From NCBI GenBank assembly GCA_001303785.1, contig LJUJ01000002.1, forward strand, positions 3,867 through 67,866: 64,000 nt of DNA, written 5' to 3'. A program made the translations under genes and the position numbers. This DNA comes from a candidate division WOR_3 bacterium SM23_42. Lineage in GTDB: Bacteria > Hydrothermota > Tepidihabitantia > SM23-42. Of the stretch, positions 1,803-50,165 are shown piece after piece (positions within the stretch are counted from its first letter, which is position 1; each line of letters starts with the position of its first letter). The notes beneath the pieces are model-generated. The model was not told where the DNA came from and searched no databases. It saw only the letters and a list, made by a program, of their open reading frames with translations.

Positions 1803-1991
1803 GACATAGGAACAAGGAAGCATGTTTCAGTAGGTAGTAAGTACTATGTAGTAGGTAGAAATACATAGATTTCGAATTTCGAAATGCGAATTGCGGAAAA
1901 CGAAAAAATAGTCATCGAGTCACTACGTCATTATGTCATTCGTGATTTGCATTTAGAGTGTGATAGGATAAAATCGTAAAAGGAGGGTATT

Positions 1992-2720
1992 ATGATTGGT
2001 GGATCCTTTTTGAAGTTGTATGTGCTGGCGGTATTGGCCATTCCGCTGATACTATCAATTTCGTGTAGTAAGGAGGAATGGGACTATGTCGTACTCGGTG
2101 ATTCCTCGGCGTGGGGTTTCCCGGAATACTACGCTGCACATATCGAGGAAGACTTAGGGGTCAAGGTTACAGTTCATGACTGGACAGTCGGTGGTCTGAG
2201 TAGTGGGAAATTGTTGAGCATGCTACGAGATGACGAGGAGCTACGTGAGACTATTAGTAAAGCTGAGGTGATTAGTTACTGCGCCAACCCAGGGGACCAT
2301 ATTGGGTGGCATATCATAACTGGGGAGGGCCGGCATGACTGTTCAGCGAAAGCGCTTGTAGGATACAAGTCTGACCTGGATAGAATCATCAATGAAATCT
2401 TCTCGCTCAGGAAAGGAAAACCTACGCTCATTCGTGCCATGGATTTCTACGTGCCCATTCATAGCGAATGGAGAGAACGCGGTAAGTACGAGGAAAACAG
2501 GCGCTGCTGGACAGCTTTTAACGAGACGATTCACGAGGCTGCTGCTGAATTCAAAATTCCCGTGGCGCGTGTGTATGATGCCTTTAATGGTGCAAATCAT
2601 GGTGAGGACCCACGGGAAAAAGGGTATATTGGTGACGATGGATTGCATACGAACGAGATTGGACAAAAGGTTATTGCTGATCAATTCCGGAAATTGGGGT
2701 ACGAGCCGATCACGCCTTGA
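1992..2720 (+). CDS. SGNH/GDSL-family hydrolase, lipoprotein
   Basis: AAGGAGGG RBS. Lipobox LSISC. GDS block VLGDSSAWG and DxxH block DDGLHTNEIG. Confidence 0.7.
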   Translation: MIGGSFLKLYVLAVLAIPLILSISCSKEEWDYVVLGDSSAWGFPEYYAAHIEEDLGVKVTVHDWTVGGLSSGKLLSMLRDDEELRETISKAEVISYCANPGDHIGWHIITGEGRHDCSAKALVGYKSDLDRIINEIFSLRKGKPTLIRAMDFYVPIHSEWRERGKYEENRRCWTAFNETIHEAAAEFKIPVARVYDAFNGANHGEDPREKGYIGDDGLHTNEIGQKVIADQFRKLGYEPITP

Positions 2721-2811
2721 TTGGAAAGCGAAAAGGCTACTTCTATGACAAGGAGACATAGCTTAGTAGGTAGTATGTACTATGTAGTAGGCACCAAAGA
2801 AGCGTATCAGA

Positions 2812-3626
2812 TGATCAGTAGGCGGGATACCAGAACATCGGAGTATCAGGTAAAGACTAGATTATCTACATGTTTGTTGATTTTGTGCATTGGTGTGGTC
2901 GTAGCGTATGGACAGGAGGAGTTGCCCGATAATTACCTGCCCATCAGTCTGGAGATACAAGACACAAGATTAGAAGGGGGATGCGGATATTTGGAGGGAT
3001 TTACTTTTTCAATGGATCTACCGCCTGGTTTCTTGAAGAAAACCTTTGATAAGGAAAAACTATTCGAAATCGTCCGCAGTGAAAAAATAACTGGCACGTT
3101 GACTTATCCAAATAACAAAACAGCAGAGATAGAATATGAAGTGGTAAATCATCGTGGCGTCGAAGATATCTACATGAAGACCACGTTGGGATATTTTCTA
3201 TGGGAGATGTTAGATATAACGGATGGTGGATTGTTTTTTGCAATTAATTGGTGGTATTGTCCACCAGCTAGAGAAGTTGATTTAGAGGCTTTGAAAATGG
3301 CTGAACAGCTACTGGCAGATTCATCTAATTGGCATAAAATGGATGACAGGAAATGTGAAGATGATATTGCCAATAATAAATGGAGCCTGTTTTGTGCGAT
3401 AAAGTATGCTTCGATAGAGAAGATGGGTGAGTACAACCATCATAATACAGCTATGCAGGCTTTACGATTTACGATAGACGAACTTGTGCCTAATCATGGG
3501 TTTGAACATACGTTAATGGATTATAATAATTCACCTTCAACTACCCATAAAGATATAGTGGCGGTCATAAACAAGGCAAAGAAGAAGATTACGGACGAAC
3601 TACAGCTCAATGAGAATGATCAATAA
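2812..3626 (+). CDS. hypothetical secreted protein (start uncertain)
   Basis: The ORF is open from 2721, but 2760-2850 is occupied by the GTAGTA and CAG repeat modules, so I chose ATG 2812, which precedes the hydrophobic signal LSTCLLILCIGVVVAYG. Confidence 0.4.
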
Positions 3627-3862
3627 CGGAGGGCCAGCTTATCTCGCATTCCGTTCGCCCTGCGAATTGATTACAGTGATGCAATACAGATATTGTGTTA
3701 TTGGGTCACTATGTCATTTGCATAAAGAGCGAGCTCAGTAAGCCGAGCTCCGAGCTCTAAAGACTGTGGGGTCAGACCTCGAAATTCGAATAACTATGAT
3801 CAAGAATCGTATTTTGGATTAGCTGTGTATGATAGATTATTATTAAAAGGAAAGGACGATTT

Positions 3863-4957
3863 ATGATTAATGAGTACATATCTGTTTCTTTTATTTATCT
3901 TTTGTGCCTTTTTGCTGTTTTCTCTAATGCTCAGGAGTTGAGCGATCCTGAGAAGAATTTCGAGTATCTGTGGAAAGAATTTGACAGGAGATATGCCCTT
4001 TTCCTGCCCAAGCGTATTGATTGGAATCTTCTCTACAGAGTCTACCGGCCCAAGGTTACACCGCAAACAAGTGATGACGAACTGTTCGAAATAATGTCGA
4101 AAATGCTGACGCGCCTGAATGACCTCCATGTTAGGCTTGATTCAAAGAACCCGCCAAGGAGCTTCCGGTCTGGCAAATCTCATGAGGCGGTACTGCAACA
4201 ATTCGGTACGGTTGAGAATTTTATACGTTATTTCAAAGAGCGACCAATAGACAAGAAGTATGTTAAAACAGAACTGCATGAAAGGCACGAAAATATCTTC
4301 GCTTATACGTGGCTGACCGATGATATCGGCTATTTTCATTTCAGTAAATTTAGTGGTGTAGAAAAGAGTTCTGAAATTGTTGATGAGATTGTTGATTATT
4401 TCAAGAATGCGAAGGGTCTTATTATTGATGTCAGAAGAAACGGAGGCGGTGACGATAAGGTTGGTAAGGTGATCGCCGACCGCTTTGCTGATGAAAAGAG
4501 ACTGTATATGACGATACAGGCAAAAAGCGGACCCGGGCACGGTGACTTTGCTGAACCTGTCAGGTGGTATGTTGAGCCTGATGGTCCTATTCAGTTCACA
4601 AACCCGATAATTCTGCTTACCGACTTCACCTCGGGCAGTGCGGCGGAGAATTTTGCGCTTGCCATGCGGGTGCTTCCGCATGCGACCATTGTTGGTGATT
4701 TTACTGCCGGATGTTTTGCCGATGCTGAGGCAGATAAGCTTCCCAATGGATGGTATTTTTCCCTCTCGATAAACATGTTCAAGGATCAAAATGGCATTTG
4801 TTGGGAGGGAATCGGTGTGCCTCCAGATTTGAGAATTGTTAATACAAAAGAGGACGTGGACAATTGTAGAGACAGAGTTCTTGAATTTGCTGTCGAGCTG
4901 ATAAATTCTGGAGCGCGAGGAGGTCAGAAGAAGAAAGAGAATGGAAGTAACTCATAG
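3863..4957 (+). CDS. Peptidase S41 family protein
   Basis: Signal peptide. S41 blocks LIIDVRRNGGG and LTDFTSGSAAE. Confidence 0.75.
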   Translation: MINEYISVSFIYLLCLFAVFSNAQELSDPEKNFEYLWKEFDRRYALFLPKRIDWNLLYRVYRPKVTPQTSDDELFEIMSKMLTRLNDLHVRLDSKNPPRSFRSGKSHEAVLQQFGTVENFIRYFKERPIDKKYVKTELHERHENIFAYTWLTDDIGYFHFSKFSGVEKSSEIVDEIVDYFKNAKGLIIDVRRNGGGDDKVGKVIADRFADEKRLYMTIQAKSGPGHGDFAEPVRWYVEPDGPIQFTNPIILLTDFTSGSAAENFALAMRVLPHATIVGDFTAGCFADAEADKLPNGWYFSLSINMFKDQNGICWEGIGVPPDLRIVNTKEDVDNCRDRVLEFAVELINSGARGGQKKKENGSNS

Positions 4958-5849
4958 AAACTACAACGGATATGAAAAGGACTTCTTTGATATGAGGTAT
5001 TTGCTGATAGAAAGCTACGGCAAATATGTGAAACCACTGAATTGGTTGATAGGAAGGCTGGATAATTGGAGATATGCGGCCCTTACTGCCAGAATCAGAA
5101 CCGAACCGTATTTTTATCAAAGGAATGCTCACTTATGGCGAAAAGATCATGGCCAGTTAATCGGATTCTTTGTTTCTGAGAATGGCAAGGAATATTTTGA
5201 ATTACAAGTGCATCCGGATTATCGTTTCATAGAAGAGGAAATGTTAAAATGGGTCATCGATAATTGGTCAACCGGGAAAAATGAGATCGTTACGAATATA
5301 TACGTCCATGATACAGCCAGGATTAGGTTATTGGAGAAATTCAGTTTTGTTTGTCAGGGTGTGGTTGGTGTTGATTACCGATATCATACGAAAGACTACG
5401 TGGATGACGTTGCTACGGAAGACGATTTTCGCATAGAATCTTTCTCCGAAAGCTATGATTTTGAAAGCAGGATTGAATCTGAGAGATTGACATTTGGGAG
5501 AGACTCATTAGACAGAGAATGGTTTGAAACAAAAGCAATAGCACCTGGATATTCGAGTGACTGGGACTTAGTTGTAATTGAGCCTAATGGACAGGTTGTG
5601 GCCTTTTGTGTTGCTTGGCTCGACGAAGAAAATAGTGTGGCAGAGATCGATCCTGTAGGGACTCACCCCGATTACAGAAAAAGAGGTCTTGCAAAGGCTT
5701 TGTTGACAACCTGTTTTGCACGACTGAATAGACACGGCATTGCTAAAGCGCAAATACAGGGGTTTTCTGAGCCTGGTAAGAATCTGTATAGATCACTTAT
5801 GCCAGCTGAAGACTATGAAATATTGGGTTATAGGCTGAAGTTACGCTAG
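4941..5849 (+). CDS. GNAT family N-acetyltransferase (start uncertain)
   Basis: C-terminal GNAT motif IDPVGTHPDYRKRGLAKALL. Overlaps the upstream gene by 17 nt. Confidence 0.55.
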   Translation: MEVTHRNYNGYEKDFFDMRYLLIESYGKYVKPLNWLIGRLDNWRYAALTARIRTEPYFYQRNAHLWRKDHGQLIGFFVSENGKEYFELQVHPDYRFIEEEMLKWVIDNWSTGKNEIVTNIYVHDTARIRLLEKFSFVCQGVVGVDYRYHTKDYVDDVATEDDFRIESFSESYDFESRIESERLTFGRDSLDREWFETKAIAPGYSSDWDLVVIEPNGQVVAFCVAWLDEENSVAEIDPVGTHPDYRKRGLAKALLTTCFARLNRHGIAKAQIQGFSEPGKNLYRSLMPAEDYEILGYRLKLR

Positions 5850-5974
5850 GAGAATGCGCAAAACACATATAGTCGTTGTGACCCTGTCATTGAAAGCTTC
5901 GCATCCATTGATTACTAACTTAGTCATTAAGTCATTTACAATCTTGGTTAAACTGCATACTTGTAAAAATAGCT

Positions 5975-6025
5975 GACAGCAAATCCTGTTAACAATCAAA
6001 AAAAAACATCTGGTTGGAAAGTTTG
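5975..6025 (+). promoter_or_regulatory. conserved upstream element (aaatcctgttaacaatcaaaaaaaaacatctggttggaa) plus promoter of SNase-like gene, copy 1
   Basis: A 40-nt block identical to 6641-6680, then TTGGAA-16-TAATAT. Confidence 0.6.
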
Positions 6026-6095
6026 AGGATTTGTGTAATATTCCTCAGTAATATCCTGGGATTTCCATTTCGAAATACATGAAAGGAGGTCGCAT

Positions 6096-6365
6096 ATGCA
6101 AACCGGGGTCGTGGATACCGTAATAGATGGTGATACCTTTACGTTGACAACCGATGAGATCATAAGACTTGCTAATGTCAATGCACCAGAGAAAGATTCG
6201 CCAAATGCCGCCAAAACACGCGAAAAATTAAGCAAACTAATCGGAAACAAATATATCAGATACAACGAAGTGGCAAAGGATACCTATGGGCGCGTCGTGG
6301 CAGAAGTGTATGTGAATAGTACCTATGTGAATGACGAAATGCGCAAATACATATCTCTATTGTGA
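6096..6365 (+). CDS. small thermonuclease (SNase)-like protein
   Basis: RBS AAAGGAGG. The motifs VIDGDTF...IRLANVNAPE align to the staphylococcal nuclease core (DGDT, R35, E43 equivalents), but the protein is only 89 aa. Confidence 0.6.
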   Translation: MQTGVVDTVIDGDTFTLTTDEIIRLANVNAPEKDSPNAAKTREKLSKLIGNKYIRYNEVAKDTYGRVVAEVYVNSTYVNDEMRKYISLL

Positions 6366-6568
6366 ACTCTCGTTGACGAGGTGCATTTGTTAGTTGAAAA
6401 CAAAGTTAACCTGCAATATATCGTTATTGAGTAATTGTGTAATTATGTCACTACAAGCAGCATACCAGGATATCATAGGACCAGCGGGCAGAAGATCAGA
6501 ATACTAGAATATCAGATTGCTCCGCACCTAAACTACGCAGATGAAGATAAACATTACCCTGACAGGCA

Positions 6569-6596
6569 TAAGTCATTGAGTCATTAAGCCATTGAA
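6569..6596 (+). repeat. GTCATT octamer-periodic module (representative copy; >=12 copies in window)
   Basis: aaGTCATTgaGTCATTaaGCCATTgaag. Other copies at about 1921, 3705, 5919, 7040, 11569, 17626, 23219, 27140, 37178 and 42365. Confidence 0.8.
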
Positions 6597-6640
6597 GACT
6601 GCAGCAAGGTAAACCTAGCTTGTGCTCACGGCGTGCAGTA

Positions 6641-6697
6641 AATCCTGTTAACAATCAAAAAAAAACATCTGGTTGGAAGATTGGGCGATTGGTGTTA
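6641..6697 (+). promoter_or_regulatory. conserved upstream element plus promoter of SNase-like gene, copy 2
   Basis: The same 40-nt block, then TTGGAA-17-TATACT. Confidence 0.6.
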
Positions 6698-6755
6698 TAC
6701 TATTGAGTAACTTACAGAAGCATCCATCTGACAGATACGAAAGGAGGTAGTGTCG

Positions 6756-7025
6756 ATGCAGACGGGAGTAGTCGAGGCAGTCTTAGATGGCGAAACTTTT
6801 AGATTAAATACGGGTGAGACTGTGAGACTTGCAGAGGTCGATGTTCCAGAGGTGGGGTCTCCTGCTTACGCACAAGCATTTGAAAAATTGAAACAGCTCG
6901 TCGAGGGGAAAGCAATTTTGTATGATCAGAGGACTATTGACGGCTATGGACAGATCGTGGCTGATGTCTGGGTGAACAGCTTATATATAAATAATGAAAT
7001 GCACCGATTCATTTCACTTTTGTAA
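6756..7025 (+). CDS. small thermonuclease (SNase)-like protein, tandem paralog
   Basis: Paralog of 6096..6365; both begin MQTGVV. RBS AAAGGAGG. Motif VLDGETF...VRLAEVDVPE. Confidence 0.6.
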   Translation: MQTGVVEAVLDGETFRLNTGETVRLAEVDVPEVGSPAYAQAFEKLKQLVEGKAILYDQRTIDGYGQIVADVWVNSLYINNEMHRFISLL

Positions 7026-7145
7026 AAAGCAAAGAAAATAAGTCATTGCGTCATTTTGTCGTTTAGTTTGAATGCGAAAACGTTTTGAGCATTCAGCTTG
7101 ACAATAGATAAAATCCTGGTACCATAGTCTGAACAGGAGGTGGAT

Positions 7146-10708: not shown

Positions 10709-10972
10709 AGGGTCGACTGTGTATTTGCAGGCAGTAGAAATCATCTAGAGTAATCCGAGATATGCAGAGAACCTACCTGTCGTAGGTCCTTCTGAGCGGG
10801 CCATATTTTGTTAAGCTTCAAGTCAATAAGTTATGATAATGTATGGGTTATTTTGTGTACGTGATGAATTTGGCATATTGTGCAGACTTTTTTTCGTAAT
10901 TGATTATTCACAAATGCAACGTTGTCTTAGATTCTGCCGAAGATTGTGTAGGAGAAAGATAGGGAGGTAATT

Positions 10973-11497: not shown

Positions 11498-11727
11498 CTT
11501 CTAGCTGACAATGAACTTAGTGATTAGTAAAACCAACCTGCTAACAAGAACCCGACACACTATTAAACATAGTCATAAGTCGTTATGTCATTGAGTCATT
11601 TTAACAAAGGGCTCGAAAGGATTCAATAAAGGCTAAGAGAAGGCTATGAGGGCGGAGCTTCGGAACGCTGGATTCTCCGGTTGAACCGGAGAATGGCCCT
11701 ACGTGAAGCATTAGGCGTCAAGCTTTG

Positions 11728-13556: not shown

Positions 13557-13711
13557 TTTTCTAATTTAGAAGATTATCTAACGTTATTATACTTAAAAAT
13601 ACGTAAATGTCAAGAGGTCATTTTTGCATTCAGTCAGATCTGGGGAAGGGTACTTGAATAGCAGAATATCAGGGTAAAAGCGTAGAGCGTATTGCGAAGT
13701 GTGAAGCTGTA

Positions 13712-13739
13712 TTGACAAATAGGCGAATTGTGTTAGAGT
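13712..13739 (+). promoter_or_regulatory. sigma-70 promoter TTGACA-16-TAGAGT
   Basis: ttgacaaataggcgaattgtgttagagt, upstream of the SBBP-repeat gene. Confidence 0.4.
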
Positions 13740-17610: not shown

Positions 17611-17745
17611 CACCGATAGACATTTCAATCATTGTATCACTGGACCATTGAGTCATTGCTGTTCTGAGGGCTCGATTACGACGACGAAAGAAACAGATTA
17701 CACTGATTGAAAATAGCGTGGGGCGTCGAGCGTCAAGCGTCAATG

Positions 17746-17773
17746 TTGACATGGCATTATAGGCAGTTACAAT
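17746..17773 (+). promoter_or_regulatory. sigma-70 promoter TTGACA-16-TACAAT
   Basis: ttgacatggcattataggcagttacaat. Confidence 0.5.
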
Positions 17774-17830: not shown

Positions 17831-18466
17831 ATGGTAAAGGATGCAATCCTACCTGCTAATGTAAATCGCAGGCAGTTCCTTTTCAAGATGTTACCAGCGG
17901 GTGTCTTATTCGGTTTAGGCTGTGGCCGGTTGTTTGGCTCAGCTGCAACAGAGGAAACTGCCACCGTTTTGTCTGAAACGCATAAATATCTTGCAGATGC
18001 GGGAATGACATATAAGGAAGTTTACGAACTCGTTTTTAAGTATAATTTCATCCCGTATATGGAGCGTCTGGCGCAATATTTGGGAAGAGATGAGTTGGTT
18101 GAATTGTTGATGAGAGCTGCTACTGAACATTATACTCAGCGTGGAAGGAATTGGGCAAAGAGGATGGAGAAGAAAGAGTTCACTGCGTACTTTAATTTCT
18201 TGAGAAAGCCGGATCGGGATTGGTTACATACCTGCACGCACGAGATTATTGAAGACACAGATAATGTACTTCAAGTTAAGTACACCGAATGTATATATGC
18301 GGATATTTTTCGTGAAGTGAACGCCCAGGATATAGGGTATGCTGCATTCTGCCACGGTGACTTCGCAATCTTTTCGGCTTTGGACCATAGGATCAAGCTG
18401 ATTCGCACCAAGACATTGATGCAAGGAGATGACTGTTGCGATCATCGGTTTGTTTGGGAAGGATAG
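17831..18466 (+). CDS. hypothetical Tat-signal protein (Cys-rich C-terminus)
   Basis: AAAGGAGG RBS before ATG 17831. Twin-arginine motif NRRQFLFK. C-terminal CHGDF...DDCCDH. Confidence 0.5.
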   Translation: MVKDAILPANVNRRQFLFKMLPAGVLFGLGCGRLFGSAATEETATVLSETHKYLADAGMTYKEVYELVFKYNFIPYMERLAQYLGRDELVELLMRAATEHYTQRGRNWAKRMEKKEFTAYFNFLRKPDRDWLHTCTHEIIEDTDNVLQVKYTECIYADIFREVNAQDIGYAAFCHGDFAIFSALDHRIKLIRTKTLMQGDDCCDHRFVWEG

Positions 18467-19071: not shown

Positions 19072-19184
19072 GACACGACTGAGAAACGGAGACACATCTT
19101 TTCTAAAATCCTAAATCCGAATACCGAAATCCGAAATTCAAATGACCAAAACAAACCAGCGTATCAGATTATCAGGGGATCAGC

Positions 19185-19312
19185 GGGCAGAAGACCAGAA
19201 TACCAGGATATCAAATAGAAGCTATCATTGGGGTACGAATGGAATCGTTTTTTAAACACGCAGAGACGGAACGTCGGAGGAGCGGAGACGTCAAGCGAAC
19301 TCCGAGCTCCGA
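19185..19312 (+). repeat. ~128-bp intergenic repeat, copy 1 (about 88% identical to 21592..21718)
   Basis: gggcagaagaccagaataccaggatatcaaatagaagctatcattggggtacgaatggaatcg...gcgaactccgagctccg. Lies upstream of lipoprotein 19458. Confidence 0.85.
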
Positions 19313-19457
19313 ACTGCAACCACCGCAGTATGTAGTATGCACCAGGTAGTATGTGGAAGAATACCGAGCAGCGTATTGCGTGCGGCGCAAAGCATAGTTG
19401 ACAGTGACTTTAGCTATAATGGAATAAATAAGCATAGATTTACGTAGAGGAGGAGTT

Positions 19458-31992: not shown

Positions 31993-31998
31993 AGAGCT

Positions 31999-33135: not shown

Positions 33136-33368
33136 CGTAAACGTACTGCGTCAGGCGACAATCTACTGTATAGTAAGCAGTATGTACTAAGTAGTAAGTA
33201 GAAATAACGTACTGCATAACACGCAGGGCAAAACAAAATACAGCGTATCAGAAGATCGAGAGAACGGCGTACGGCGCGAAGGAACAGTGTTGATATTTTT
33301 TGCCTCTTGGTTATAATGTGTTACTATTTTAATGAAAGTGGCACGAAAAAAATGTGAGAGGAGGCAAT

Positions 33369-37143: not shown

Positions 37144-37365
37144 ACGCAGATACCAGATTCTCGATAATTGATATCATGCAGTCATTGTGTCATTATGTAA
37201 TTATGTCATTTCAGAAAAGTATGTTAAAAGATAACAAAACCAACCTGTCGCAGATCCTGCATGGGCAGGGCTATGCTTTGTAAACTTACAGTGGGTTGTT
37301 ATTGGGTTATTACATCACAGCATATCGGGAGAAATCAAGATCGATATTCGATTACGGAGGTATGA

Positions 37366-39604: not shown

Positions 39605-40140
39605 CGCACGCGACCAGTAGGGGGTGGTTCAAGCTTGAGTGCTGATAGTATTCTCACGATCTGTAAATATAATGAATTTCAAAATATGGCGATGGTGTTG
39701 AACAAAAGAAACATTCAAGGACACAGGAGATAGCTTACTCAGGGTCGAGTGCTCGCCATCGTGAGGGTTCAGAGCAAACTCAAAATCAGTTGTGTGTTGG
39801 AAACAATTACTGTGCTGAGCATATGTTCACTAGACATGCGGGATTGTGACTACCAGCGATATTCATTGCGTTCGATAGACGGTACGACGATGTGATTTCC
39901 CTTGTACAGAATTTGAGTCTCCGAGCATGTTTAGGCTTTAGATTCGTTACTGTGATAGTTTATGTGAGTCAATTGTAAGGCTTCTTGCTATTATTAATTT
40001 GCGCTTATGAAACCATTCATATATAGCAACTCTCTCTATGACGCAAGAAAGGATGCGAGAGTGGGTGCCGATATTTACAGTCAGTTTCGGTTTATGCAAT
40101 CATAGTGATATGATCCGTATAAGTGTATTGGGAGGAAAAC

Positions 40141-41553
40141 ATGAGAAGAACATTGGTAATTATTTGTGGTATAGTATGTCTTTGCCCATCGGTTTTATCT
40201 GCGCAGTGGGAACCAGACTTCCGTCTCACTTATGATGATAGCATCTCATATTTGTGCTATAACAATGCGTGGTGTATCGCTGCCACAGGTGAGACAACAC
40301 ACGTAGTCTGGCACGATTATCGATTTGCCATCCCGGAGGTTTACTACAAGCGTTCGTTGGATAATGGAACAACATGGGAAGCAGATGTGCGTCTTACGAA
40401 TTGGTTTGGCTACTCGGGGTGCGCGGCGATTGCCGTCGAAGGCACAAATGTACATGTTGCCTGGTGCGACGAACGTGATGGGCACTTTGAAATTTACTAT
40501 AAGAGATCTATTGACGGCGGCATGAGTTGACAATCGGATACCCGGCTTACATATGCTGATGACTGCGCACTATATCCTTGTATTGCAGTTTCCGGGGACT
40601 ATGTTCACGTCGTTTGGCAAGATTCCCGCGACGGAGTGCTGATGTTTGAAGTCTACTATAAGCAATCGACAGACGGCGGGATGACGTGGGGATCAGATAC
40701 ACGTCTCACTTATACTAACGGCACTGCAGGAATGCCGTCGATTGCCGTTTTGGGAGCCGATATTCATGTAGGCTGGGGTAGTGATTATGATGGGAATAGT
40801 GAGATTTACTACACCCGGTCCACGGATGTCGGTGCCAGCTGGCAGCAGTACGTTAGGCTGACAAATGACAATGCTTCGTCCTTGGATCCCTCGATCGCAG
40901 TCGCTGGGAGTGGCGTTCATATTGTTTGGGTTGATGAAAGAGACGGTAACAAAGAAATATACTACAAATATGCAAAGAGTAGCGGCACAATGTGGAGCGG
41001 GGATATTCGGTTAACGAATGCTATAGGGGTTTCACGCCAGCCATCGATCAGCGCTGATGGAAATAATGTCCATGTAGCCTGGTGTGACAAGCGGAATGGT
41101 GAGAATGATATTTACTATAAGCTTTCAATGGATTGCGGTGTAAGCTGGGAGCCTGACACACAGCTCACGAATGGCTCTGAGGAGCACTCATGGTATCCTT
41201 CGGTTGCGGTTTCTGGTACTACTGTCCATGTGGTTTGGTCAGACTGGAGAGATGGTAATTTTGAGATTTACTATAAACGTAATCCTACGGGGAACACCGG
41301 AGTACATGAATCGATGACACAACACGCAGGTGTATTGCTGCAGGAGTGCAGAACGGCCCCCAATCCTTTCAGTTCTTATACGATTGTACAGGGTCATGAA
41401 GAAGACCGTTTCGCACTGTACGATACAGCGGGCAAACTGGTTGGGAAATATAGAGGTGACCGAATTGGCGAAGGTTTACCAGTAGGCGTTTATCTTCTTA
41501 TTCCTGAGATGATTAATGCAAAACCTACTTTGATTGTTAAGGTAAGACACTAG
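40141..41553 (+). pseudogene. BNR/Asp-box repeat T9SS cargo protein interrupted by an in-frame TGA at 40528-40530 (paralog of 42704..44116)
   Basis: ORFs 40123..40530 and 40636..41553 share one frame. The paralog has TGG (Trp) where this copy has TGA. Asp-boxes SLDNGTTW, STDGGMTW, STDVGASW; C-terminal T9SS domain. Confidence 0.6.
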
Positions 41554-41706
41554 ATAGGGATAAGAGTACTAAGCATCATTTATTGGCACTGCGACCCGAT
41601 GGATTAGTGTTCGAAAATTATTAAATGAAGCGGCTGCAGCCGCCTCGGGTTTGCGATTAAACTTTTGTTTTAGACGGAAGATACTCGAATCATAATGGAG
41701 GTAACC

Positions 41707-42282: not shown

Positions 42283-42703
42283 TGCGAGCTCCGACCACGG
42301 CAGTAAGTAGTACGTAGAAGGTAGTAAGTAGAATAGAAATGAGATCAGAGCCAATGAAAGATTCGTAATGCAATATGGTAATTATGTAATTATGATATTG
42401 TGTTATTATGCATCAGGGCATCAGGATATCAGAGCGAGAGTAGGGAGGTTGTCCTCACACCTCTGGTGCAGACTTTGTCTTTCGAGAAATGATTTGGGTT
42501 TTTAGATTCGTCACTGTGATAGTCTATGTGAGATTATTGTAAGACTTGTGGTTACGATAATTTGGTGTTACTGAGACAATTTATACGGCAACTCCTCGTA
42601 CGGTGAACAACCGGAAGTGAGGGTGAGTGCCGGTATTTTGCGGTGAGTTTCAACGTATGCGTTCAGACTAATCAGATTTGTATGATTGTATTGGGAGGAA
42701 AAC

Positions 42704-44116
42704 ATGTGGAGAACATTGGTAATTGTCTGGGGTATTGCTTGTCTTTGCCCGTCGGTTCTGTCTGCGCAGTGGGAACCAGACTTCCGTCTCACTTATGATG
42801 ATAGCATATCATATTTGTGCTACAACAATGCGTGGTGTGTCGCTGCCGAGGGTGAGACAACACACGTAGTTTGGCATGATTCTCGACATGCCATCCCGGA
42901 GGTTTACTATAAGCGTTCATTAGACAATGGAACAACATGGGAAACAGATGTGCGTCTTACGAATTGGTTTGGTCACTCGGGGTGTGCGGCGGTTGCCGTC
43001 GCAGGCACAAGTGTCCATGTTGCCTGGTGCGACGAGCGTGATGGGCACTTTGAGATTTACTATAAGAGATCCATTGACGGCGGCATGAGTTGGGCTTCGG
43101 ATACCCGGCTTACATATGCTGATGACTGCGCAGTATATCCTTGTATTGCAGTTTCCGGGGACTATGTTCACGTCGTTTGGATGGATACCCGCGACGGAGT
43201 GCAGGTGTGTGAAGTCTACTATAAGCGATCGACTGATGGCGGCACGACGTGGGGGCCAGATACGCGTCTCACTTATAATAATTGCAGTGCAGGAATGCCA
43301 TCGATTGCCGTGCTAGGAGCCAATATTCATGTAGCCTATAGTGATCATTATGATGGGAATAATGAGATTTACTACATGCGGTCCACTGATGCAGGTGCCA
43401 GCTGGCAGCAGTACGTCAGACTGACAAATGACAATGCTTCATCCTTGAATCCCTCGATTGCAGTAGCTGGGAGTGGCGTACATGTTGTTTGGATTGACGA
43501 AAGAGATGGTAACAAAGAAATATACTACAAACGTGCGAAAGGTGGCGGAGCAGCGTGGAGCGGGGATATTCGGTTAACGAATGCTCCAGACGTGTCACGC
43601 CATCCATCGGTCAGCGCTGATGGAAATAATGTCCATGTAGTCTGGTGTGACAGGCGGACTGGAGAGAATGATGTTTACTATAAGCTTTCAACGGATTACG
43701 GTGTAAGCTGGGAGCTTGACATGCAAATCACGCATGGCTCTGAGGAGCACTCATGGTATCCATCGGTTGCCGTTTCAGGTACTACTGTCCATGTGGTGTG
43801 GTCAGACTGGAGAGACGGCAATTTTGAGATTTACTATAAGCGTAACCCTACGGGTAACACCGGAGTACATGAATCGATGACGCAACACGCGGGTGTATTG
43901 CTGCAGGAGTGCAGAACGGCTCCCAATCCTTTCAGTTCTCATACAATTGTTCAGGGCCATGAAGAAGAACGTTTCGCACTGTACGATTCAGCGGGCAAGC
44001 TGGTCGGAAAATACAGTGGTGACCGAATAGGCGGAGATTTGCCAGTAGGCGTTTATCTTCTTGTTCCTGAGATGATTAATGCAAAACCTGCATTGATTGT
44101 GAAAGTAGGACACTAA
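42704..44116 (+). CDS. BNR/Asp-box repeat protein with T9SS C-terminal sorting domain
   Basis: GGGAGG RBS before ATG 42704 (MWRTLVIVWG...). Multiple SxDxGxTW boxes. C-terminal APNPFSSHTIV...ALYDSAGKLV...GVYLLVPEM. Confidence 0.7.
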   Translation: MWRTLVIVWGIACLCPSVLSAQWEPDFRLTYDDSISYLCYNNAWCVAAEGETTHVVWHDSRHAIPEVYYKRSLDNGTTWETDVRLTNWFGHSGCAAVAVAGTSVHVAWCDERDGHFEIYYKRSIDGGMSWASDTRLTYADDCAVYPCIAVSGDYVHVVWMDTRDGVQVCEVYYKRSTDGGTTWGPDTRLTYNNCSAGMPSIAVLGANIHVAYSDHYDGNNEIYYMRSTDAGASWQQYVRLTNDNASSLNPSIAVAGSGVHVVWIDERDGNKEIYYKRAKGGGAAWSGDIRLTNAPDVSRHPSVSADGNNVHVVWCDRRTGENDVYYKLSTDYGVSWELDMQITHGSEEHSWYPSVAVSGTTVHVVWSDWRDGNFEIYYKRNPTGNTGVHESMTQHAGVLLQECRTAPNPFSSHTIVQGHEEERFALYDSAGKLVGKYSGDRIGGDLPVGVYLLVPEMINAKPALIVKVGH

Positions 44117-44280
44117 ATGGGGACAATAGTACCATCAGATTAGAAGAGTAAGAGCATTTGGCTTGTGAGTTTCCTACAATTGGCAGAAAAATCTCTGATG
44201 CATGACGATTTCCAGGCAATATCAGATGCATTTATCGTAAGTGGGAGACCTGACAACAGAATAGCAGTGATGCGAGCTCC

Positions 44281-44340
44281 GAGCTCTGAACTGCGACCAC
44301 GGCATAAGTAGTAGGTAGTATGTACCAGGTAGTAGGTAGA
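44281..44340 (+). repeat. GAGCTCCGAGCTC + GTAGTAGGTAGTATGTAC module (representative; copies at ~1016, 1831, 2761, 3726, 19300-19347, 21700, 33170, 42285-42335)
   Basis: gcgagctccgagctctgaactgcgaccacggcataagtagtaggtagtatgtaccaggtagtaggtag. Confidence 0.75.
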
Positions 44341-44374
44341 CAAAGCGTGTGGCGTATTGCGTCGGGCATAAAAG

Positions 44375-44403
44375 TTGACAAGGTCGTATCTGGTAGGTAC
44401 AAT
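44375..44403 (+). promoter_or_regulatory. sigma-70 promoter TTGACA-17-TACAAT
   Basis: ttgacaaggtcgtatctggtaggtacaat, about 20 nt before the RBS of 44423. Confidence 0.55.
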
Positions 44404-44893: not shown

Positions 44894-44902
44894 GGAGACA
44901 TA

Positions 44903-45283
44903 ATGAGATTAATCATTCGTTGGGCAATCATTGCTTTTTCACTCTTCGTGGCGGCCTGGCTCGTGCCGGGTATCCGTGTTGAGGGAAATGCTTGGGTTAT
45001 TTTTACGGTAATGGCGGTCATCTTGGGGCTCGTAAATGCCGTGGTGCGGCCGATACTTACGCTGTTGACTTGCTCCCTCGTCATCCTCACCCTGGGTCTG
45101 TTCGTCTTGGTGATTAATGCGTTGACCTTGTGGCTGGCTTCTTCTATTGCAGTCAACTGGTTCGGTGTTGGTTTCTATGTGGACGGATTCTGGTCGGCCT
45201 TCTTGGGCGCACTGATTGTGAGTATTGTTTCGGTCATACTCTCTGCAGCTGTCAGGGATGAGAGGAGAATGGCTCAACGCTGA
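44903..45283 (+). CDS. DUF360/phage-holin-4-like four-TM membrane protein
   Basis: TAAGGAGA RBS. Block INALTLWLASSIAVNWFGVGFYVDGFWSAFLGALIVSIVS. Confidence 0.5.
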   Translation: MRLIIRWAIIAFSLFVAAWLVPGIRVEGNAWVIFTVMAVILGLVNAVVRPILTLLTCSLVILTLGLFVLVINALTLWLASSIAVNWFGVGFYVDGFWSAFLGALIVSIVSVILSAAVRDERRMAQR

Positions 45284-45343
45284 GCACAGGATCACTATAC
45301 GTTATCGCTGCAGGTGCACATCTGACAATCCTGGGAGTGAAAA

Positions 45344-45826
45344 ATGCATAAAGAAATGAACAGACTTGGTGTCGGTCCCAAGTTTGCGTTATTGGGCCTG
45401 GTATATGGGGCCGTTATCCTTGTGTTACATTATTCCTTTTTTCCTACTCTGACCTTCACGCTTATTTCAAAATGGGTGAATATCGTACTGGGTACAATCC
45501 TCATTATCATAGGATTTCCATTGTTCATTCTGTCGGGGATTATGGTTCACACGCACATAGGCAAGGGTAAACTATGTACAACTGGCGTGTATGCGTATTG
45601 TCGGCATCCTCTATATGGGGCATGGGTATTGTTTGTTGTTCCCGGAATAGTCATGATCACTGGTTCGGTCGTGGCTATATCATGGCCTGTTTTTCTTTAC
45701 ATATTATGTAAAATCTATACGGCCGAAGAAGAAAGGTATCTCAGAACAAAATTCGGCGATGAATACCTAAGATACGAGAAAGAGGTTTATGCAATTTTTC
45801 CTAAAATATGGAGAAAATATAGCTGA
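45344..45826 (+). CDS. isoprenylcysteine carboxyl methyltransferase (ICMT/PEMT) family membrane methyltransferase
   Basis: RHPLYGAW and EE..L...FGDEYLRYEKEV motifs. Confidence 0.65.
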   Translation: MHKEMNRLGVGPKFALLGLVYGAVILVLHYSFFPTLTFTLISKWVNIVLGTILIIIGFPLFILSGIMVHTHIGKGKLCTTGVYAYCRHPLYGAWVLFVVPGIVMITGSVVAISWPVFLYILCKIYTAEEERYLRTKFGDEYLRYEKEVYAIFPKIWRKYS

Positions 45827-45961
45827 GGCGCGCGGTCGAAATCGTAACTGCGATTATCCATTTCGTGATTAACAAAAGTGGCGATCTGATACTAGTGTCA
45901 GCAATCTCAGCAACTGAATAATATCTATATGCCACTGATTGCTTAAGGTATACTAAACTAA

Positions 45962-46702
45962 ATGAAGAGTATCATTCTTCGTAGCAACGCAACACCTGTG
46001 TATTCTTTCTTGAGTCTGATTAATTCGGAGGAGTCAAGAAAGAAAATGAAACCTAAGAGGATATTGGACTGCGGGGCTGGTGGTCAAGTCCCGCCCCTTG
46101 CACTGTTTCATCAACACGGGTTCGAGATTTGGGGAATCGACATATCGGATGAACAGCTAGAAAAAGCCAGGCGATTCTGCGCAGAACAAGGCCTGAAGAT
46201 TCAACTGCAAAGGGGCGATATGCGCAGTATTCCTTTCAGAAATGCATCATTTGATTATGTATTTGAACACTACTCAATGTGCCATCTTAGTAAAAAAGAT
46301 GTGGGTTTGGCAATCAGTGAGATGCATCGAGTTTTGAAAAAACAAGGTCTGTGTTTTTTGGGTGTAATCTCAACTGATTCATGGCCCAAGTCAACCTTCG
46401 GACAGGAGAAGGAGTCGGGTGAATTCTGGAGAGAGAACGAGAATGGTGAGCCGACATTGCACAGCATGTTTACCGATGGTGAAGCAGATAAATTGGTGTC
46501 GGCGTGGGAAGTCGTTTCCAAGGAGAAGCGGGTTCAGTATATGCTTGAGGTGTCACAGAAAATTACGTTAGAGGAGTGGATGGCGTTGCACGGGGAGGCA
46601 CGGGAAGAATGTTCCCGTCGGATCTGGAAAGCAAAGTATGCACAGAGAATGAATGAATTCAGGTACGTGTATACGTATTTCTTTTTAAGAAAATTGAAAT
46701 AG
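45962..46702 (+). CDS. class I SAM-dependent methyltransferase (start uncertain)
   Basis: Motif I ILDCGAGGQ. Methyltransf_11-like acidic and D/E blocks. An alternative start is ATG 46037. Confidence 0.55.
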   Translation: MKSIILRSNATPVYSFLSLINSEESRKKMKPKRILDCGAGGQVPPLALFHQHGFEIWGIDISDEQLEKARRFCAEQGLKIQLQRGDMRSIPFRNASFDYVFEHYSMCHLSKKDVGLAISEMHRVLKKQGLCFLGVISTDSWPKSTFGQEKESGEFWRENENGEPTLHSMFTDGEADKLVSAWEVVSKEKRVQYMLEVSQKITLEEWMALHGEAREECSRRIWKAKYAQRMNEFRYVYTYFFLRKLK

Positions 46703-46873
46703 CATGACGTTTATCTTGTGGGAAGAATTCTGGAGTGAACTACCGGACAGCGTAGCCGAGTATTAGTTTATCGTTAGGTAGAATATCAGGAAAGGTGCGA
46801 ATAATATAGGTACGTAATAGAGACAGAGAATAGGGTACGGCGTAATACGTTATGCTCAACAAAGGATACAACA

Positions 46874-49033
46874 TTACTGATTTCTGAGGTCGACGCCTAG
46901 GCGGTCAAACAAAAAAGCGTAGGTGTCTGCATGTTGGGCGATTCGTCGGCTCAGTGCATCTCCCTTGCCGTGGCCAGACCCGGAACTCAATCTCAATAAT
47001 ACATACCCTTCCGAAGTAGTGGCTGCCTGGAGGCGCGCAGTCATCTTTCGTGAATTAGATGCATTGACCCGATAGTCGTTTTCATCGGCGGTCATCAAGA
47101 CATCCGGATAGTGCACGCCATCGACAACATTGTGATAAGGCGAATAAGCATGTAGTGCCTTGAACTGAGCAGGATCTTTGACGGTTCCCCATTCAGTAAT
47201 ATTGAACTCGCCGTTGGGGTCTAACTCTTCCCGAAGCGCATCGTGAACACCTTTATGGGACACGACTGCTCGGAATAGGTCGGGGTGCTGTACCATGACT
47301 GCGCTGACCAGCAACCCACCAGCGCTGCCTCCTCTGATGGCCAGTTTTGAAGGGTTGGTGTAACCCGCATCGATTAGGTACTGGGCGCAAGCAGTAAAAT
47401 CATCGAACGTGTTTTGTTTGTTTGTCATATTGCCAGCCTTGTACCATTCGTCGCCGAATTCACCGCCGCCGCGGGTATTGGCCTCTATATACACACCACC
47501 ATTGTCGAGCCATATGCTGAGTGTGCGGTCGTATCCAGGTGTCATGCTTATCCCGTACGCGCCATACCCGTAGAGAATGGTTGGATTATTACCATTCAAT
47601 TTCATGTCCTTTCGGCGCATGATGTTCATGGGAATTTTCGTACCATCCTTCGAGGTAGCGTACTCCCGAACAACTTCGACATCACTGAAGTCTGCCGGGC
47701 CTGTGACGTATATCGCAGTGCGCAAGGGCTTATCGTGCGAGGGTTCATAGGTGTAATAGGCTGGAGGCGCAAGGTAGCTGGAATTCTTGAAAAGCATTTT
47801 GTCTTCGCCTAGTGACATCATTGCCCAGGCTGACGAGACTGGCATGATCGGTACAAGTTCTTGAGAACCATCGGCAAGATCTAACATGCGGATCTGCGAG
47901 GGACCACCGACAAGATCTCGGATGTAGATTTTACTTTCAGTTGGCAGGAAATCGCGGATAACGGCCTCACCGTCGGTAACGAGAGTAAGACCGTATGGTA
48001 ATTCCGTCTTCCCGGGAGGTAGATAGAGAATTTTCCCATTGGAAGCATCTTTGTGGGATAGAAAATACAGTGCATTATCAGGGCCGAACTTGGCTTTAGT
48101 GATCATATCTGAGAACTGCGTGACCTGCGTCCACTTTCCAGACGGGTCGAGAAGGTAATGCGCATACTCACCTCCGTCGCCGTTGGCCACTATCGCCAGA
48201 ACGTGAGTTTCATCAGGCGATGTTTCGAATTCAACTTCCGCAATCCGCGGGAATTCCTTGCCAATGACATAGGGGTCATCACTGATCGATGTGCCAAGTT
48301 GGTGATAATAAACTTGCTGGTAAAAACGCAAATCTTCAAGGGGTCGTTCGTTGGGGTAAGGATAACGTGTGTAGTAAAAACCCGAACCATCCGCTGTCCA
48401 TGCAACATCACCGCCGGCAGTGGGGCCATTAACACGGGGAATGACGTCAGGTAAAGGCTTGCCCGTGGCAACCTCATAGATGTGGACGTTACCATCTTCT
48501 GTTCCACTTCTGGAGAGTGATACGGCGACCAGTCGCGCATCCGGGGATACGACGTAGAAATCGATTGTTGTAAGACCCGTTGTATCCAATTGATTCACAT
48601 TGAGTATTACCTGTTCGGTACTCAAGTCGTGTAGGGATTCCAATTTAACAAGCAGTGGTTGATCAAGAGGTGGTTGATCCTTGAGTGCGAAAAATTCACC
48701 GCTTTTGTGTTGAAACCAGTAGTATTCTGGCGAGGATTCGTTGTATAATTCGTGCAGTCGTTTGGCGATCGCCTCACGTACAGGAATGTCATCTAACACC
48801 CGGTGAGTATAAGCATCTTGTGCCTCACTCCAGTTGCAGACTGCGGGGTCGTCTCCATTTTCAAGCCAGCGGTAGTTGTCGACGACCTCGACACCATGAT
48901 AAACATCGGTCACGGGTATGATCGGCGTTTCGGGTAACTCAGGTACCTCATCGGCGTAACCATTTATTGCCGAAAAAGCGCCCAGCGCAAGCCCGGTAAT
49001 AATGATTATTAGATTCGAATATCTCCTTTTGAC
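46874..49033 (-). CDS. prolyl oligopeptidase family (S9A) serine peptidase, secreted
   Basis: AAGGAGG RBS then TTG 49033. Signal peptide. Catalytic blocks IRGGSAGGLLV and the C-terminal His region. Confidence 0.8.
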   Translation of the reverse strand, partial: VKRRYSNLIIIITGLALGAFSAINGYADEVPELPETPIIPVTDVYHGVEVVDNYRWLENGDDPAVCNWSEAQDAYTHRVLDDIPVREAIAKRLHELYNESSPEYYWFQHKSGEFFALKDQPPLDQPLLVKLESLHDLSTEQVILNVNQLDTTGLTTIDFYVVSPDARLVAVSLSRSGTEDGNVHIYEVATGKPLPDVIPRVNGPTAGGDVAWTADGSGFYYTRYPYPNERPLEDLRFYQQVYYHQLGTSISDDPYVIGKEFPRIAEVEFETSPDETHVLAIVANGDGGEYAHYLLDPSGKWTQVTQFSDMITKAKFGPDNALYFLSHKDASNGKILYLPPGKTELPYGLTLVTDGEAVIRDFLPTESKIYIRDLVGGPSQIRMLDLADGSQELVPIMPVSSAWAMMSLGEDKMLFKNSSYLAPPAYYTYEPSHDKPLRTAIYVTGPADFSDVEVVREYATSKDGTKIPMNIMRRKDMKLNGNNPTILYGYGAYGISMTPGYDRTLSIWLDNGGVYIEANTRGGGEFGDEWYKAGNMTNKQNTFDDFTACAQYLIDAGYTNPSKLAIRGGSAGGLLVSAVMVQHPDLFRAVVSHKGVHDALREELDPNGEFNITEWGTVKDPAQFKALHAYSPYHNVVDGVHYPDVLMTADENDYRVNASNSRKMTARLQAATTSEGYVLLRLSSGSGHGKGDALSRRIAQHADTYAFLFDRLGVDLRNQ

Positions 49034-49398
49034 CAAGAATGCCTCCTTGATATTGAATTCAAATAGAGGTACTTGCCCCCGTCCGGCATATTTTATCAGA
49101 CAAACAGCCGGTGTCAAGTTGATTGCACCGCAGACAATGCTTAGCGCACATAATATGGAGCACAATATTGAGCAGCATATCAGGATAACAGGATATCGGT
49201 GGGCAGATTATCAGAACATCAGAATACCAGGGAAAATCGTAAAGCGTATCCTGATATGCTGGTACCCTGGTAATCTGATATGCTGCCCCTAGGTAAAGTG
49301 GATTAAGCATCAGAGGTCAATGAATCTCAGAAGAACTTTGCTCTCCGTGAGCAGGCGGGCAACTACATAGCGGCATTTTAGTAAAAGAGCGTACTGCA

Positions 49399-50007
49399 TT
49401 GACATACTCTAATACTCAGGTAGAATTTTGTTGTGAGCATAATAGGTTTATAATCGGGTGTATTGTGACATTTCTTCATGATCCTTTTTTCTGGGCTCTG
49501 GTGAGCATGTTTGCCCTTGTCGGAGGCGGGGTTGTGTTGAGTCATAAAAAGACCGGAAAGCATCAACTTTTCGGTATCATAGTTGTGTTTCTGTTTGTTC
49601 TAGGTCGGGGAATTCTCGTGCTGCCTGGTTGCCCCCAGCCTCGATTTGAAAGCGGTGGCTGGCATTGGTTCGTAGGCGGTATCATCTTTATCGGCGGTCT
49701 CGTTTTCAGCATTCCCGTTTTTTTCATCAAACCACTGACACCGCCGAATGAGCAGATGATGCTTGTAACCACTGGATTTTACAGAATCGTTAGGAATCCA
49801 ATTTACTTAGGCGAAGTTCTGTGGTGTCTCGGCTGGGCTATCATGTTTCGTTCAATAATTGGTGTCGCGCTCGTTCCGCTGTGGTGGTTGGCCTTGCTGC
49901 TCCATACACTCGTTGAAGAGGAAATGCTGAAACGCGCGTTGGGACAACCGTACATCAATTATGCAAAAAAGGTGCGGGGACGTATCATCCCAGGACTGCC
50001 GATATGA
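49399..50007 (+). CDS. ICMT/PEMT-family membrane methyltransferase (start uncertain)
   Basis: RNPIYLGEV...EEEMLKRALGQPYINYAKKV. Confidence 0.55.
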   Translation: MTYSNTQVEFCCEHNRFIIGCIVTFLHDPFFWALVSMFALVGGGVVLSHKKTGKHQLFGIIVVFLFVLGRGILVLPGCPQPRFESGGWHWFVGGIIFIGGLVFSIPVFFIKPLTPPNEQMMLVTTGFYRIVRNPIYLGEVLWCLGWAIMFRSIIGVALVPLWWLALLLHTLVEEEMLKRALGQPYINYAKKVRGRIIPGLPI

Positions 50008-50069
50008 GAACGAAGATCGGCGTGAGGCGTATTGCGTCAGGCATTATGTGTGTGGCCTTTTACATGCCT

Positions 50070-50097
50070 ATTGACATAGTGAGCAATTTGCATATAA
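50070..50097 (+). promoter_or_regulatory. sigma-70 promoter TTGACA-16-TATAAT (csp-like locus)
   Basis: ttgacatagtgagcaatttgcatataat. Confidence 0.6.
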
Positions 50098-50165
50098 TAT
50101 TAGTATAAGAAAGTCATTTAGTTTATTGATGGTTCAGTAGAATACTCATATTCTAGATCCCCTCA

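Follow-up and report, generated by a model that had tools for sequence, protein, structure and literature searches.

Polar intergenic arrays of 7- and 8-nt units with conserved cores and free linkers in a candidate division WOR-3 bacterium: putative protein-binding platforms

We analysed a 64,000-nt stretch of DNA, hereafter the window, from the candidate division WOR-3 bacterium SM23_42 (assembly GCA_001303785.1, contig LJUJ01000002.1, positions 3,867 to 67,866). Its intergenic spacers carry short tandem arrays of 7- and 8-nt units, and these arrays are the subject of this study. The window is gene-dense, with approximately 85% of the genes on the + strand and a GC skew of +0.12 all along; the G-rich + strand is presumably the leading strand. 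The encoded proteins include type IX secretion system (T9SS) C-terminal domains and outer-membrane barrels. Their closest named homologues, at 80–85% identity, all belong to candidate division WOR-3 and share the gene order. The same sequence has been assembled independently from several estuarine-sediment metagenomes, among them contig SMTZ1_10000003 from White Oak River SMTZ and the metagenome-assembled genome (MAG) GCA_001303565.1.

We compared about 9.7 kb of spacer DNA from the window with 54 kb of its coding DNA. Base-identity autocorrelation in the spacers was 0.297 at lag 8 and 0.288 at lag 7 over a background of 0.264 (z = 7.5 and z = 5.5, respectively, against 300 dinucleotide shuffles), with harmonics at lags 14, 16, and 21 (z ~4.3 each). 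Coding DNA had the 3-nt codon signal alone and no peak at 7 or 8 nt. An earlier reading made from the letters only (the sequence-only reading) had described 8-nt-periodic intergenic modules and had proposed checking spacer periodicity and motif counts against chance. The 8-nt peak is indeed specific to intergenic DNA relative to shuffles, and in the window GTCATTNNGTCATT has 16 matches where 0.68 are expected and GCGTNNNGCGTNNNGCGT has 13 where 0.13 are expected, all 16 and all 13 of them on the + strand. The lag-7 peak has to be added to that description. When the period of each core was settled from histograms of core spacing on the + strand of the spacers, GTCATT recurred at 8 nt 24 times and at 7 nt four times, and ATCAG at 8 nt ten times. 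By contrast, GTAGTA (17 times) and GCGT (12 times) recurred at 7 nt, as did GAGCTC and CGAAAT/AAATCCG. Strict 8-nt phasing, as first proposed, is therefore wrong for four of the six families, which are heptamers at exact 7-nt spacing (GTAGTAN, CCGAGCT, AAATCCG, and GCGTNNN); the other two are octamers (GTCATTNN and ATCAGNNN). The motif GCGTATTGCGTC is merely two GCGTNNN heptads. TRF also reports arrays of period 7 and of period 8.

The arrays are common in the spacers without filling them. In a family-based map, at least one array was present in 24 of the 50 spacers of 60 nt or longer. A family-free detector found 33 arrays in the 9.7 kb of spacer versus 15 weak ones in the coding DNA (54 kb). 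From 1.8 to 50.2 kb the spacer arrays account for 842 of 7,835 spacer bases (11%), and the same detector found none past 50.2 kb, where there is 1.9 kb of spacer. The earlier statements that modules occur in nearly every spacer and that the intergenic DNA is assembled from them were thus exaggerated.

The map begins with a four-unit GTAGTAN heptamer array (1829–1858), an ATTTCGA/CGAAAT heptamer array (1869–1895), and an octamer array of four to five GTCATTNN units (1911–1940), all on the + strand, as are all arrays below unless stated. GTCATT octamers followed by CCGAGCT heptamers lie at 3697–3757. At 6423–6593, GTTATT/GTAATT octamers come first, next a 59-nt CAG-octamer element that contains the 18-mer GGGCAGAAGATCAGAATA (6486–6504), and last AGTCATTN octamers. 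Further GTCATTNN arrays occupy 7042–7067 (with a promoter downstream at 7098), 11572–11600 (in a convergent spacer), and 37181–37210 (four units). A composite cassette at 19106–19395 is made up of AAATCCG heptads, a CAG-octamer element (18-mer at 19185–19203), a unique stretch, CGAGCTC, GTAGTAT, GCGTATTGCGT heptads, and a TTGACA box. GTCATT octamers and then ATATCAGN octamers are found in a divergent spacer (23222–23289), and AAATCCG heptads, GTCATT octamers, and a CAG element with the 18-mer (27196–27214) at 27110–27227. Downstream of these are a CGT-heptad stretch directly after a stop codon followed by five GTAGTAN units (33136–33204), and a block of GAGCTC, five GTAGTAN, four GTAATTAT, and three GCATCAGG units (42283–42432). 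Another divergent spacer holds a CAG-octamer element with a degenerate 18-mer (49173–49232; 18-mer at 49201–49219) and, at 49247–49290, the only inverted CAG-octamer array. Five near-identical copies of the 18-mer had been reported from the sequence. Three are exact (6486, 21592, and 27196; chance expectation 0.02) and the copy at 19185 has one mismatch, but the copy at 49201 has three; an inverted copy lies at 49270–49288.

Arrays in the window generally have two to five units, and the GCGTNNN arrays two to six. Each unit consists of a conserved core of 4–6 nt and two to three random linker positions, where the information content is only 0.02–0.6 bit. Because detection of arrays by their cores could bias this contrast, we used a sandwich test, in which a core was required at x and at x+2p and the unconditioned middle unit was scored. 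Core positions of the middle unit matched the consensus in 83–98% of cases as compared with 17–44% in out-of-phase controls. The linkers of the middle unit matched its two neighbours in 24–40%, which is random, and linker identity was 0.21–0.32 between adjacent units versus 0.27–0.33 between arrays. Random linkers with no similarity between neighbours indicate that the arrays are not fresh slippage copies; slippage in long simple sequence repeats (LSSRs) should leave adjacent units most alike, and the linker identities do not have this pattern. Old copies under neutral decay would have lost cores and linkers alike, so that the retention of the cores speaks against neutral decay.

These observations bear on the most serious alternative, which is that the arrays are non-functional repeat DNA made by slippage together with local duplication or gene conversion, spreading neutrally or selfishly in long spacers and inheriting their polarity through non-inverting copying. 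A general excess of heptamers in bacteria favours this alternative: simple repeats, chiefly of heptamers, exceed expectation in many bacteria, and bacterial polymerases are thought to favour units of about 7 nt (Mrazek 2007, as summarized in PMC4679880; for the excess also PMC4692102). It does not easily explain cores kept at 83–98% while the linkers are fully randomised. The sequence-only reading had left open a choice between a slippage-generated family and arrays of binding sites. The sandwich test fits binding-site arrays better, and slippage appears to play a minor part, seen in a single 16-nt indel. Coding of small peptides was considered and rejected, since neither 7 nor 8 nt is divisible by three and the units often contain TAG, TGA, and TAA.

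A second property of the arrays is their polarity. Counts on the + and – strands were 14:0 for GTCATT, 9:1 for CAG, 8:0 for GTAGTA, and 7:0 for GCGT, the single exception being the CAG array at 49247–49290. Arrays were present at similar frequency in all spacer types: about 17 of 34 tandem spacers, three to four of six convergent spacers, three of seven divergent spacers (those at 13557, 23095, and 49166, which no annotated gene transcribes), and one of two spacers between minus-strand genes. Apart from the inverted CAG array, polarity is + in every spacer type, including the last case, an array of five to six GCGTNNN heptads (28633–28671) that lies 64 nt upstream of a minus-strand promoter (28569–28542). 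Polarity thus tracks the chromosome strand and not the neighbouring genes. Isolated cores in coding DNA had no strand skew (GTCATT 12 versus 20; GTAGTA 16 versus 17) and were not avoided. In the complete WOR-3 genomes CP070686.1 (loci L047 and L066) and CP070802.1 (loci L048 and L067), all array families are likewise on the G-rich strand; all four loci are reversed in the records, with the G-rich strand as locus + strand, and represent one replichore sense only.

Since polarity goes with the chromosome strand and not with the genes, a DNA-level reading is likelier than one at the level of mRNA. A purely mRNA-level role is further weakened by the divergent spacers, whose arrays are upstream of the promoters on either side. 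We nevertheless considered whether the arrays could be RNA elements, such as 3′ UTR or intercistronic platforms for cold-shock proteins, S1, or HutP/TRAP-type ring proteins, or zones of Rho-dependent termination. The array strand is the strand of most genes, and arrays often begin 0–40 nt past the upstream stop codon, as such elements might. A (GTAGTAN)n array would place UAG every 7 nt in RNA, the register that is used by HutP. Intrinsic terminator-like sites barely exceed the shuffled expectation in the window, those of the cold-shock (csp) genes alone being convincing, which also favours this reading; candidate terminators after CAG elements were not significant. For the TAACTGA heptamers, MacGregor proposed binding of S1, Csp, or CsrA (PMC4679880). 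On the other side, arrays are equally frequent in the divergent spacers, keep + polarity between two minus-strand genes, and lie upstream of promoters and not in 5′ leaders. Predicted folding of 16 array regions gave a mean minimum free energy z of –0.5 on the + strand and –0.1 on the – strand, with no consistent excess or lack of structure. The cores are not C-rich, unlike rut sites, and Rfam gave no match across the window at the gathering threshold or at E ≤ 1. With this balance we regard an RNA-level role as unlikely.

Several arrays are joined into larger cassettes. The composite cassette at 19.1 kb has a second copy in a convergent spacer with no + strand gene downstream (21565–21795); 19158–19395 and 21565–21795 share about 240 nt at 82%, non-periodic sequence included. 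A cassette with the order GAGCTC, GTAGTAN, GCGTNNN, and promoter (TTGACA at 44375 followed by TACAAT) lies at 44265–44403 and is homologous to 19285–19410; 19285–19410 and 44255–44385 both contain GAGCTC, GTAGTA, GCGT, and TTGACA. A third pair is 1812–1855 and 2748–2791, which are 84% identical, the second being the start of a GTAGTA cassette copy followed by CAG octamers (2748–2851). Composite cassettes, made of several array types and unique linker DNA, are, to judge from these alignments, copied between spacers. As to the order of the modules, which had been described as roughly fixed, GTCATT precedes CAG in four of four spacers, GAGCTC precedes GTAGTA in three of three, and GCGT is usually the last module before the promoter, but two blocks swap places (D C A B at 42283, where the block order is opposite to that of the 19.1-kb cassette, versus C E A at 1803).

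The copy at 2748–2791 indicates that the start of open reading frame (ORF) 2721–3626 is over-called. The first ~150 nt of this ORF (2721–2871) are the GTAGTA/CAG cassette copy, and on other contigs gene callers place the start about 54 nt past the stop of the upstream gene.

Whole-cassette direct duplication at short distance (1812 versus 2748 and 19158 versus 21565) is also what a non-functional origin would predict. The cassettes raise the further question of whether the arrays are non-autonomous mobile elements, derived from MITEs (miniature inverted-repeat transposable elements), repetitive extragenic palindromes (REPs), or IS200/IS605, with one insertion orientation relative to the replication fork and an outward promoter. 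Cassettes of 110–240 nt do recur before unrelated genes (19285 and 44255) and once without a downstream gene (21700), and the uniform polarity is on the lagging-strand template, on which IS200/IS605 elements act. However, the cassettes lack terminal inverted repeats, sub-terminal hairpins, target-site duplications, and sharp common boundaries, their copies are merely 70–85% identical, and the window has no transposase or RAYT gene. We consider a mobile-element origin improbable. The earlier judgement that these are not hairpin-type REP or MITE elements holds, since the families are direct repeats and the 16 array regions gave no consistent folding signal.

The GCGT heptads are associated with promoters. 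Five of the eight GCGT arrays end within 26 nt upstream of a + strand sigma-70-like promoter scoring 10–12 of 12, whereas by our estimate a random spacer position would be so near a promoter in about 5% of cases. In a divergent spacer the heptads at 13679–13706 end 5 nt before the –35 box at 13712. The four units at 17716–17743 end 2 nt before the –35 box at 17746, and those at 50020–50044 lie upstream of a perfect promoter at 50071 that belongs to a csp gene. The remaining two promoters are the one at 44375 and the one at 33290, which follows a heptad-like stretch. A sixth GCGT array precedes the TTGACA box at 19399.

The strains and relatives provide information about turnover. Among five to eight strain contigs with >99.8% identity, one array indel was found in the approximately 45 kb compared. 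It consists of two extra GTCATTNN octamers (16 nt) in strain L003, among the GTCATT octamers of the array region at 27110–27227, with TCATTG direct repeats flanking. This single event indicates that slippage occurs but is rare and that the arrays are not contingency loci. A role in phase variation, in which a change of unit number would switch neighbouring genes, could cite this two-unit indel and the long perfect AGGTGCT arrays that a Cloacimonadales genome has upstream of T9SS cargo genes. The window arrays, however, are short and degenerate, lie upstream of –35 boxes or right after stop codons and neither between –35 and –10 boxes nor inside reading frames, and changed once in strains from different samples. 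We consider this explanation very improbable.

The same spacer architecture, with another repertoire of units, is seen in both complete WOR-3 genomes. Arrays of the 9-nt unit CGTTAnnnn have a polarity of 29:0 in CP070686.1 and 17:0 in CP070802.1, and 8-nt runs of GAGAAnTT, GCATGGCG, and CAAAATAC are present in the two genomes. Directly upstream of –35 boxes, both also carry the GCGTnnn heptads known from the window, among them GCGTATTGCGT and with up to nine units in L048. A lower-GC relative (L045) has different 7- and 8-mers, and its AGATTTR heptads adjoin promoters. Downstream of a DUF5916 gene, whose orthologues are 80% identical as proteins, the array is orthologous in the two complete genomes, and there the cores were kept, the linkers changed, and the unit number is four versus five. 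Loci with 77%-identical homologues (L042–L044) are not syntenic and are almost without arrays. The arrays are, as judged from these comparisons, a lineage trait with rapid local turnover. The region from 50.2 to 64 kb (csp, MFS, ICMT, C25 peptidase, and radical SAM genes), which is array-free in the window, has the best conservation of gene order with WOR-3 genomes. In the matching blocks, L066 is array-poor (GCGT at 7 nt 0:1; CGYTR at 9 nt 3:0) and L067 keeps GCGT heptads (8:1 at 7 nt). Arrays seem to cluster where synteny is lower and spacers are long.

Scans for the 18-mer gave little beyond this lineage. In species-representative genomes there were eight single chance matches within genes and four in one Cloacimonadales chromosome, and in metagenomes only two contigs from the same locus (L023 and L026) were recovered, with the remainder being chance matches. 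In the Cloacimonadales chromosome (OY759316.1), near-perfect AGGTGCT arrays lie between paralogous genes for T9SS-secreted beta-helix/pectinesterase-like proteins; they have 23–49 units in three of the four loci L013, L014, L016, and L018, and about three in L018. The 18-mer of the CAG-octamer element also terminates each of these arrays at its 3′ edge. The four matches may be coincidence multiplied by paralogy.

As a comparison, we examined known systems. Cyanobacterial short tandemly repeated repetitive sequences (STRRs) and LSSRs (Mrazek, Guo & Shah 2007, as summarized in PMC4679880; PMC4692102) are likewise intergenic, tandem, and above chance, with 7-nt units, several families per genome, and a lineage-specific repertoire, and the window arrays are head-to-tail repeats of 5–11-nt units above chance as LSSRs are. 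They differ from both in being short (2–5 units), in having conserved cores with free linkers, in forming at least six families within cassettes, and in being near-strictly co-oriented. Their units are unrelated in sequence to those of STRRs, and the host is a WOR-3 bacterium, not a cyanobacterium. TAACTGA repeats of marine Beggiatoaceae, cyanobacteria, and Bacteroidetes are intergenic heptamer direct repeats of two to six copies at many loci for which protein binding has been proposed, but they are of one unit type and lie in the 5′ leader a few nt from start codons (PMC4679880). The window arrays comprise many unit types and are placed after the stop codon of the upstream gene and before the next promoter. 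The GGGAATC/GGGGAYT heptamers of Xanthomonas and Nostoc are approximately 90% intergenic, lie close to where the neighbouring ORF ends, and differ in length among related species (PMC4692102). They are G-quadruplex-capable and have no strand or leading/lagging preference, whereas the window arrays are strand-polar and not G-rich. Polarity is therefore not generic to such repeats, which counts against a non-functional origin. The function of STRRs, TAACTGA repeats (PMC4679880), and Nostoc heptamers (bioRxiv 10.1101/2022.06.06.494920) is unexplained.

Chi, KOPS/SRS, and architecture imparting sequences are 5–8-nt motifs with an orientation linked to the leading strand, a property that the window arrays share in lying on the G-rich, presumably leading strand; they are single dispersed sites mainly within genes, whereas the window arrays are tandem and confined to spacers. 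To our knowledge, bacterial heptamer repeats of the STRR/LSSR kind, which have been known since 1990, have no accepted function. REPs and bacterial interspersed mosaic elements, MITEs, and REPINs are also abundant, dispersed intergenic repeats with a modular mosaic structure, but they are palindromic or hairpin-forming and mobilised by RAYT (PMC3116915), whereas the window arrays are direct repeats with no hairpin signal or inverted termini. Closest in mechanism are perhaps the heptads bound by the omega (ParB) protein of pSM19035, which are contiguous, gapless 7-bp units at promoters, with one dimer per unit and at least four contiguous units needed (PMC9499535). Those heptads have mixed orientations, are conserved over all 7 bp, are plasmid-borne, and have a known cognate ribbon-helix-helix protein (PMC9499535). 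The window arrays are chromosome-wide and unidirectional, and GCGTNNN is conserved at four of seven positions in arrays of two to six units. By analogy, the GCGTNNN arrays that precede –35 boxes have, in our view, their best mechanistic precedent in the omega heptads. The metboxes of MetJ, which are 8-bp tandem units, are a second example of such units bound by protein. We found no paper mentioning WOR-3 together with intergenic tandem repeats. The class of repeat is already known; what distinguishes these arrays is the core with a free linker, the 7- and 8-nt registers in six families, the copied cassettes, and the near-absolute polarity. Of these features, the uniform polarity and the copying of whole cassettes, as well as the lineage-wide occurrence, were absent from the sequence-only reading.

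The contrast between cores and linkers, together with the proximity of GCGT heptads to promoters across genomes, favours arrays of recognition sites for oligomerising binders. We therefore tentatively read the arrays as polar, STRR/LSSR-like rows of register-spaced recognition cores and putative protein-binding platforms, a reading that we place ahead of the others although it falls short of an even chance. Each unit would present a core of 4–6 nt at a fixed register of 7 or 8 nt (9 nt in relatives) with free linker bases between, and each array would offer multiple docking sites to an oligomerising protein that binds nucleic acid, with one subunit per core. The mode of action could resemble that of the pSM19035 omega/ParB heptads on duplex DNA or of the TRAP/HutP triplet arrays on RNA. 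The GCGT heptads would be a promoter-proximal module, it would more probably be DNA than mRNA on which the arrays are read, and replication slippage would merely add or remove whole units. We infer both the binding of a protein and the nucleic acid, DNA or RNA, to which it would bind.

Several observations weigh against this. Half of the spacers are array-free, as is the 50–64-kb stretch. The six or more core families would call for several partner proteins, and no partner protein was identified for any of them. The strict polarity is not explained by duplex-DNA binders of the omega kind, which accept sites in both orientations. The density of single-nucleotide polymorphisms among strains is approximately 2.5 times higher in intergenic than in coding DNA, which gives no sign of strong constraint at the strain scale. 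Upstream of the conserved promoter of the DUF5916 gene, the module content of the two complete genomes is entirely different, with arrays in one and none in the other, and no individual array can therefore be indispensable. Much of this would be expected of non-functional repeats, as would the change in unit number by exactly two octamers, the rapid gain and loss of arrays between genomes whose proteins are 80% identical, and the patchy distribution with a syntenic block devoid of arrays. Given this rapid turnover and patchiness and the absence of an identified partner, a neutral or selfish origin stays a serious rival, if a less probable one. It does not readily account for the GCGT heptad and its promoter-proximal place being common to genomes whose other units differ.

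A broader form of the recognition-site reading is that the arrays make up a chromosome-wide, replication-oriented signalling layer, in which dedicated oligomeric proteins would read register-spaced cores, either on the template of the lagging strand or on the duplex, and cassettes devoid of hairpins would carry the cores and deliver promoters as well. They would then be an undescribed kind of polar intergenic element, characteristic of the WOR-3 phylum. We think this doubtful, although conceivable.

The window and its MAGs have other features of note. The csp gene at 50166–50360 lacks 35 nt (TAAAGTGGTTCGATGGCAGAAAAGGCTATGGTTTC) after 50207 that are present in five of five other strain contigs. 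The deletion removes the region of the KGYGF RNA-binding motif and shifts the frame. Either the strain has a pseudogene here or the assembly is in error; a paralogue at 58389–58592 is intact. A 16-nt motif, ACCTGTCGTAGATCCT, which is not a periodic module, occurs just downstream of genes in five copies versus 0.3 expected (10775–10790, 37243–37258, 58162–58177, and 60190–60205 on the + strand; 60386–60401 on the – strand). It is followed by a CTGGG...GGAC-like sequence, and its reverse complement is also found in L042 spacers. Two staphylococcal-nuclease-like genes (6096–6365 and 6750–7025; 89 and 91 aa) are tandem duplicates, and a 75-nt upstream sequence with an A9 run (5977–6051 and 6636–6710) was duplicated along with them. 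Larger duplicates of about 1.6 kb with 87% identity (39937–41569 and 42501–44132) contain genes for BNR-repeat proteins together with the region 5′ of them; in strain L052 the second copy is missing about 99 nt (44017–44115) close to its 3′ end. MAG GCA_001303565.1 is labelled ‘Dehalococcoidia bacterium SG8_51_3’ (Chloroflexota). Given the T9SS tails, outer-membrane barrels, and WOR-3 homologues, this label is doubtful and looks wrong. In L048 (CP070802.1), N runs at 5449–5548 and 17970–18069 lie within long repeat-rich spacers, the first directly adjoining a CGTTAATNN array. Scaffold gaps at such places suggest that the repeats break assemblies.

The coincidence of arrays with scaffold gaps and over-called ORF starts means that they affect both the assembly and the annotation of MAGs of this kind. 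Conserved cores and free linkers at a fixed register, together with strict polarity, are an unusually clean signature for core recognition over mere slippage, and the GCGT heptads are one module tied to promoters in several genomes of an uncultured phylum. The arrays (GCGTNNN)n, (GTCATTNN)n, and (GTAGTAN)n provide concrete probes for binding studies of the proteins that may read them.

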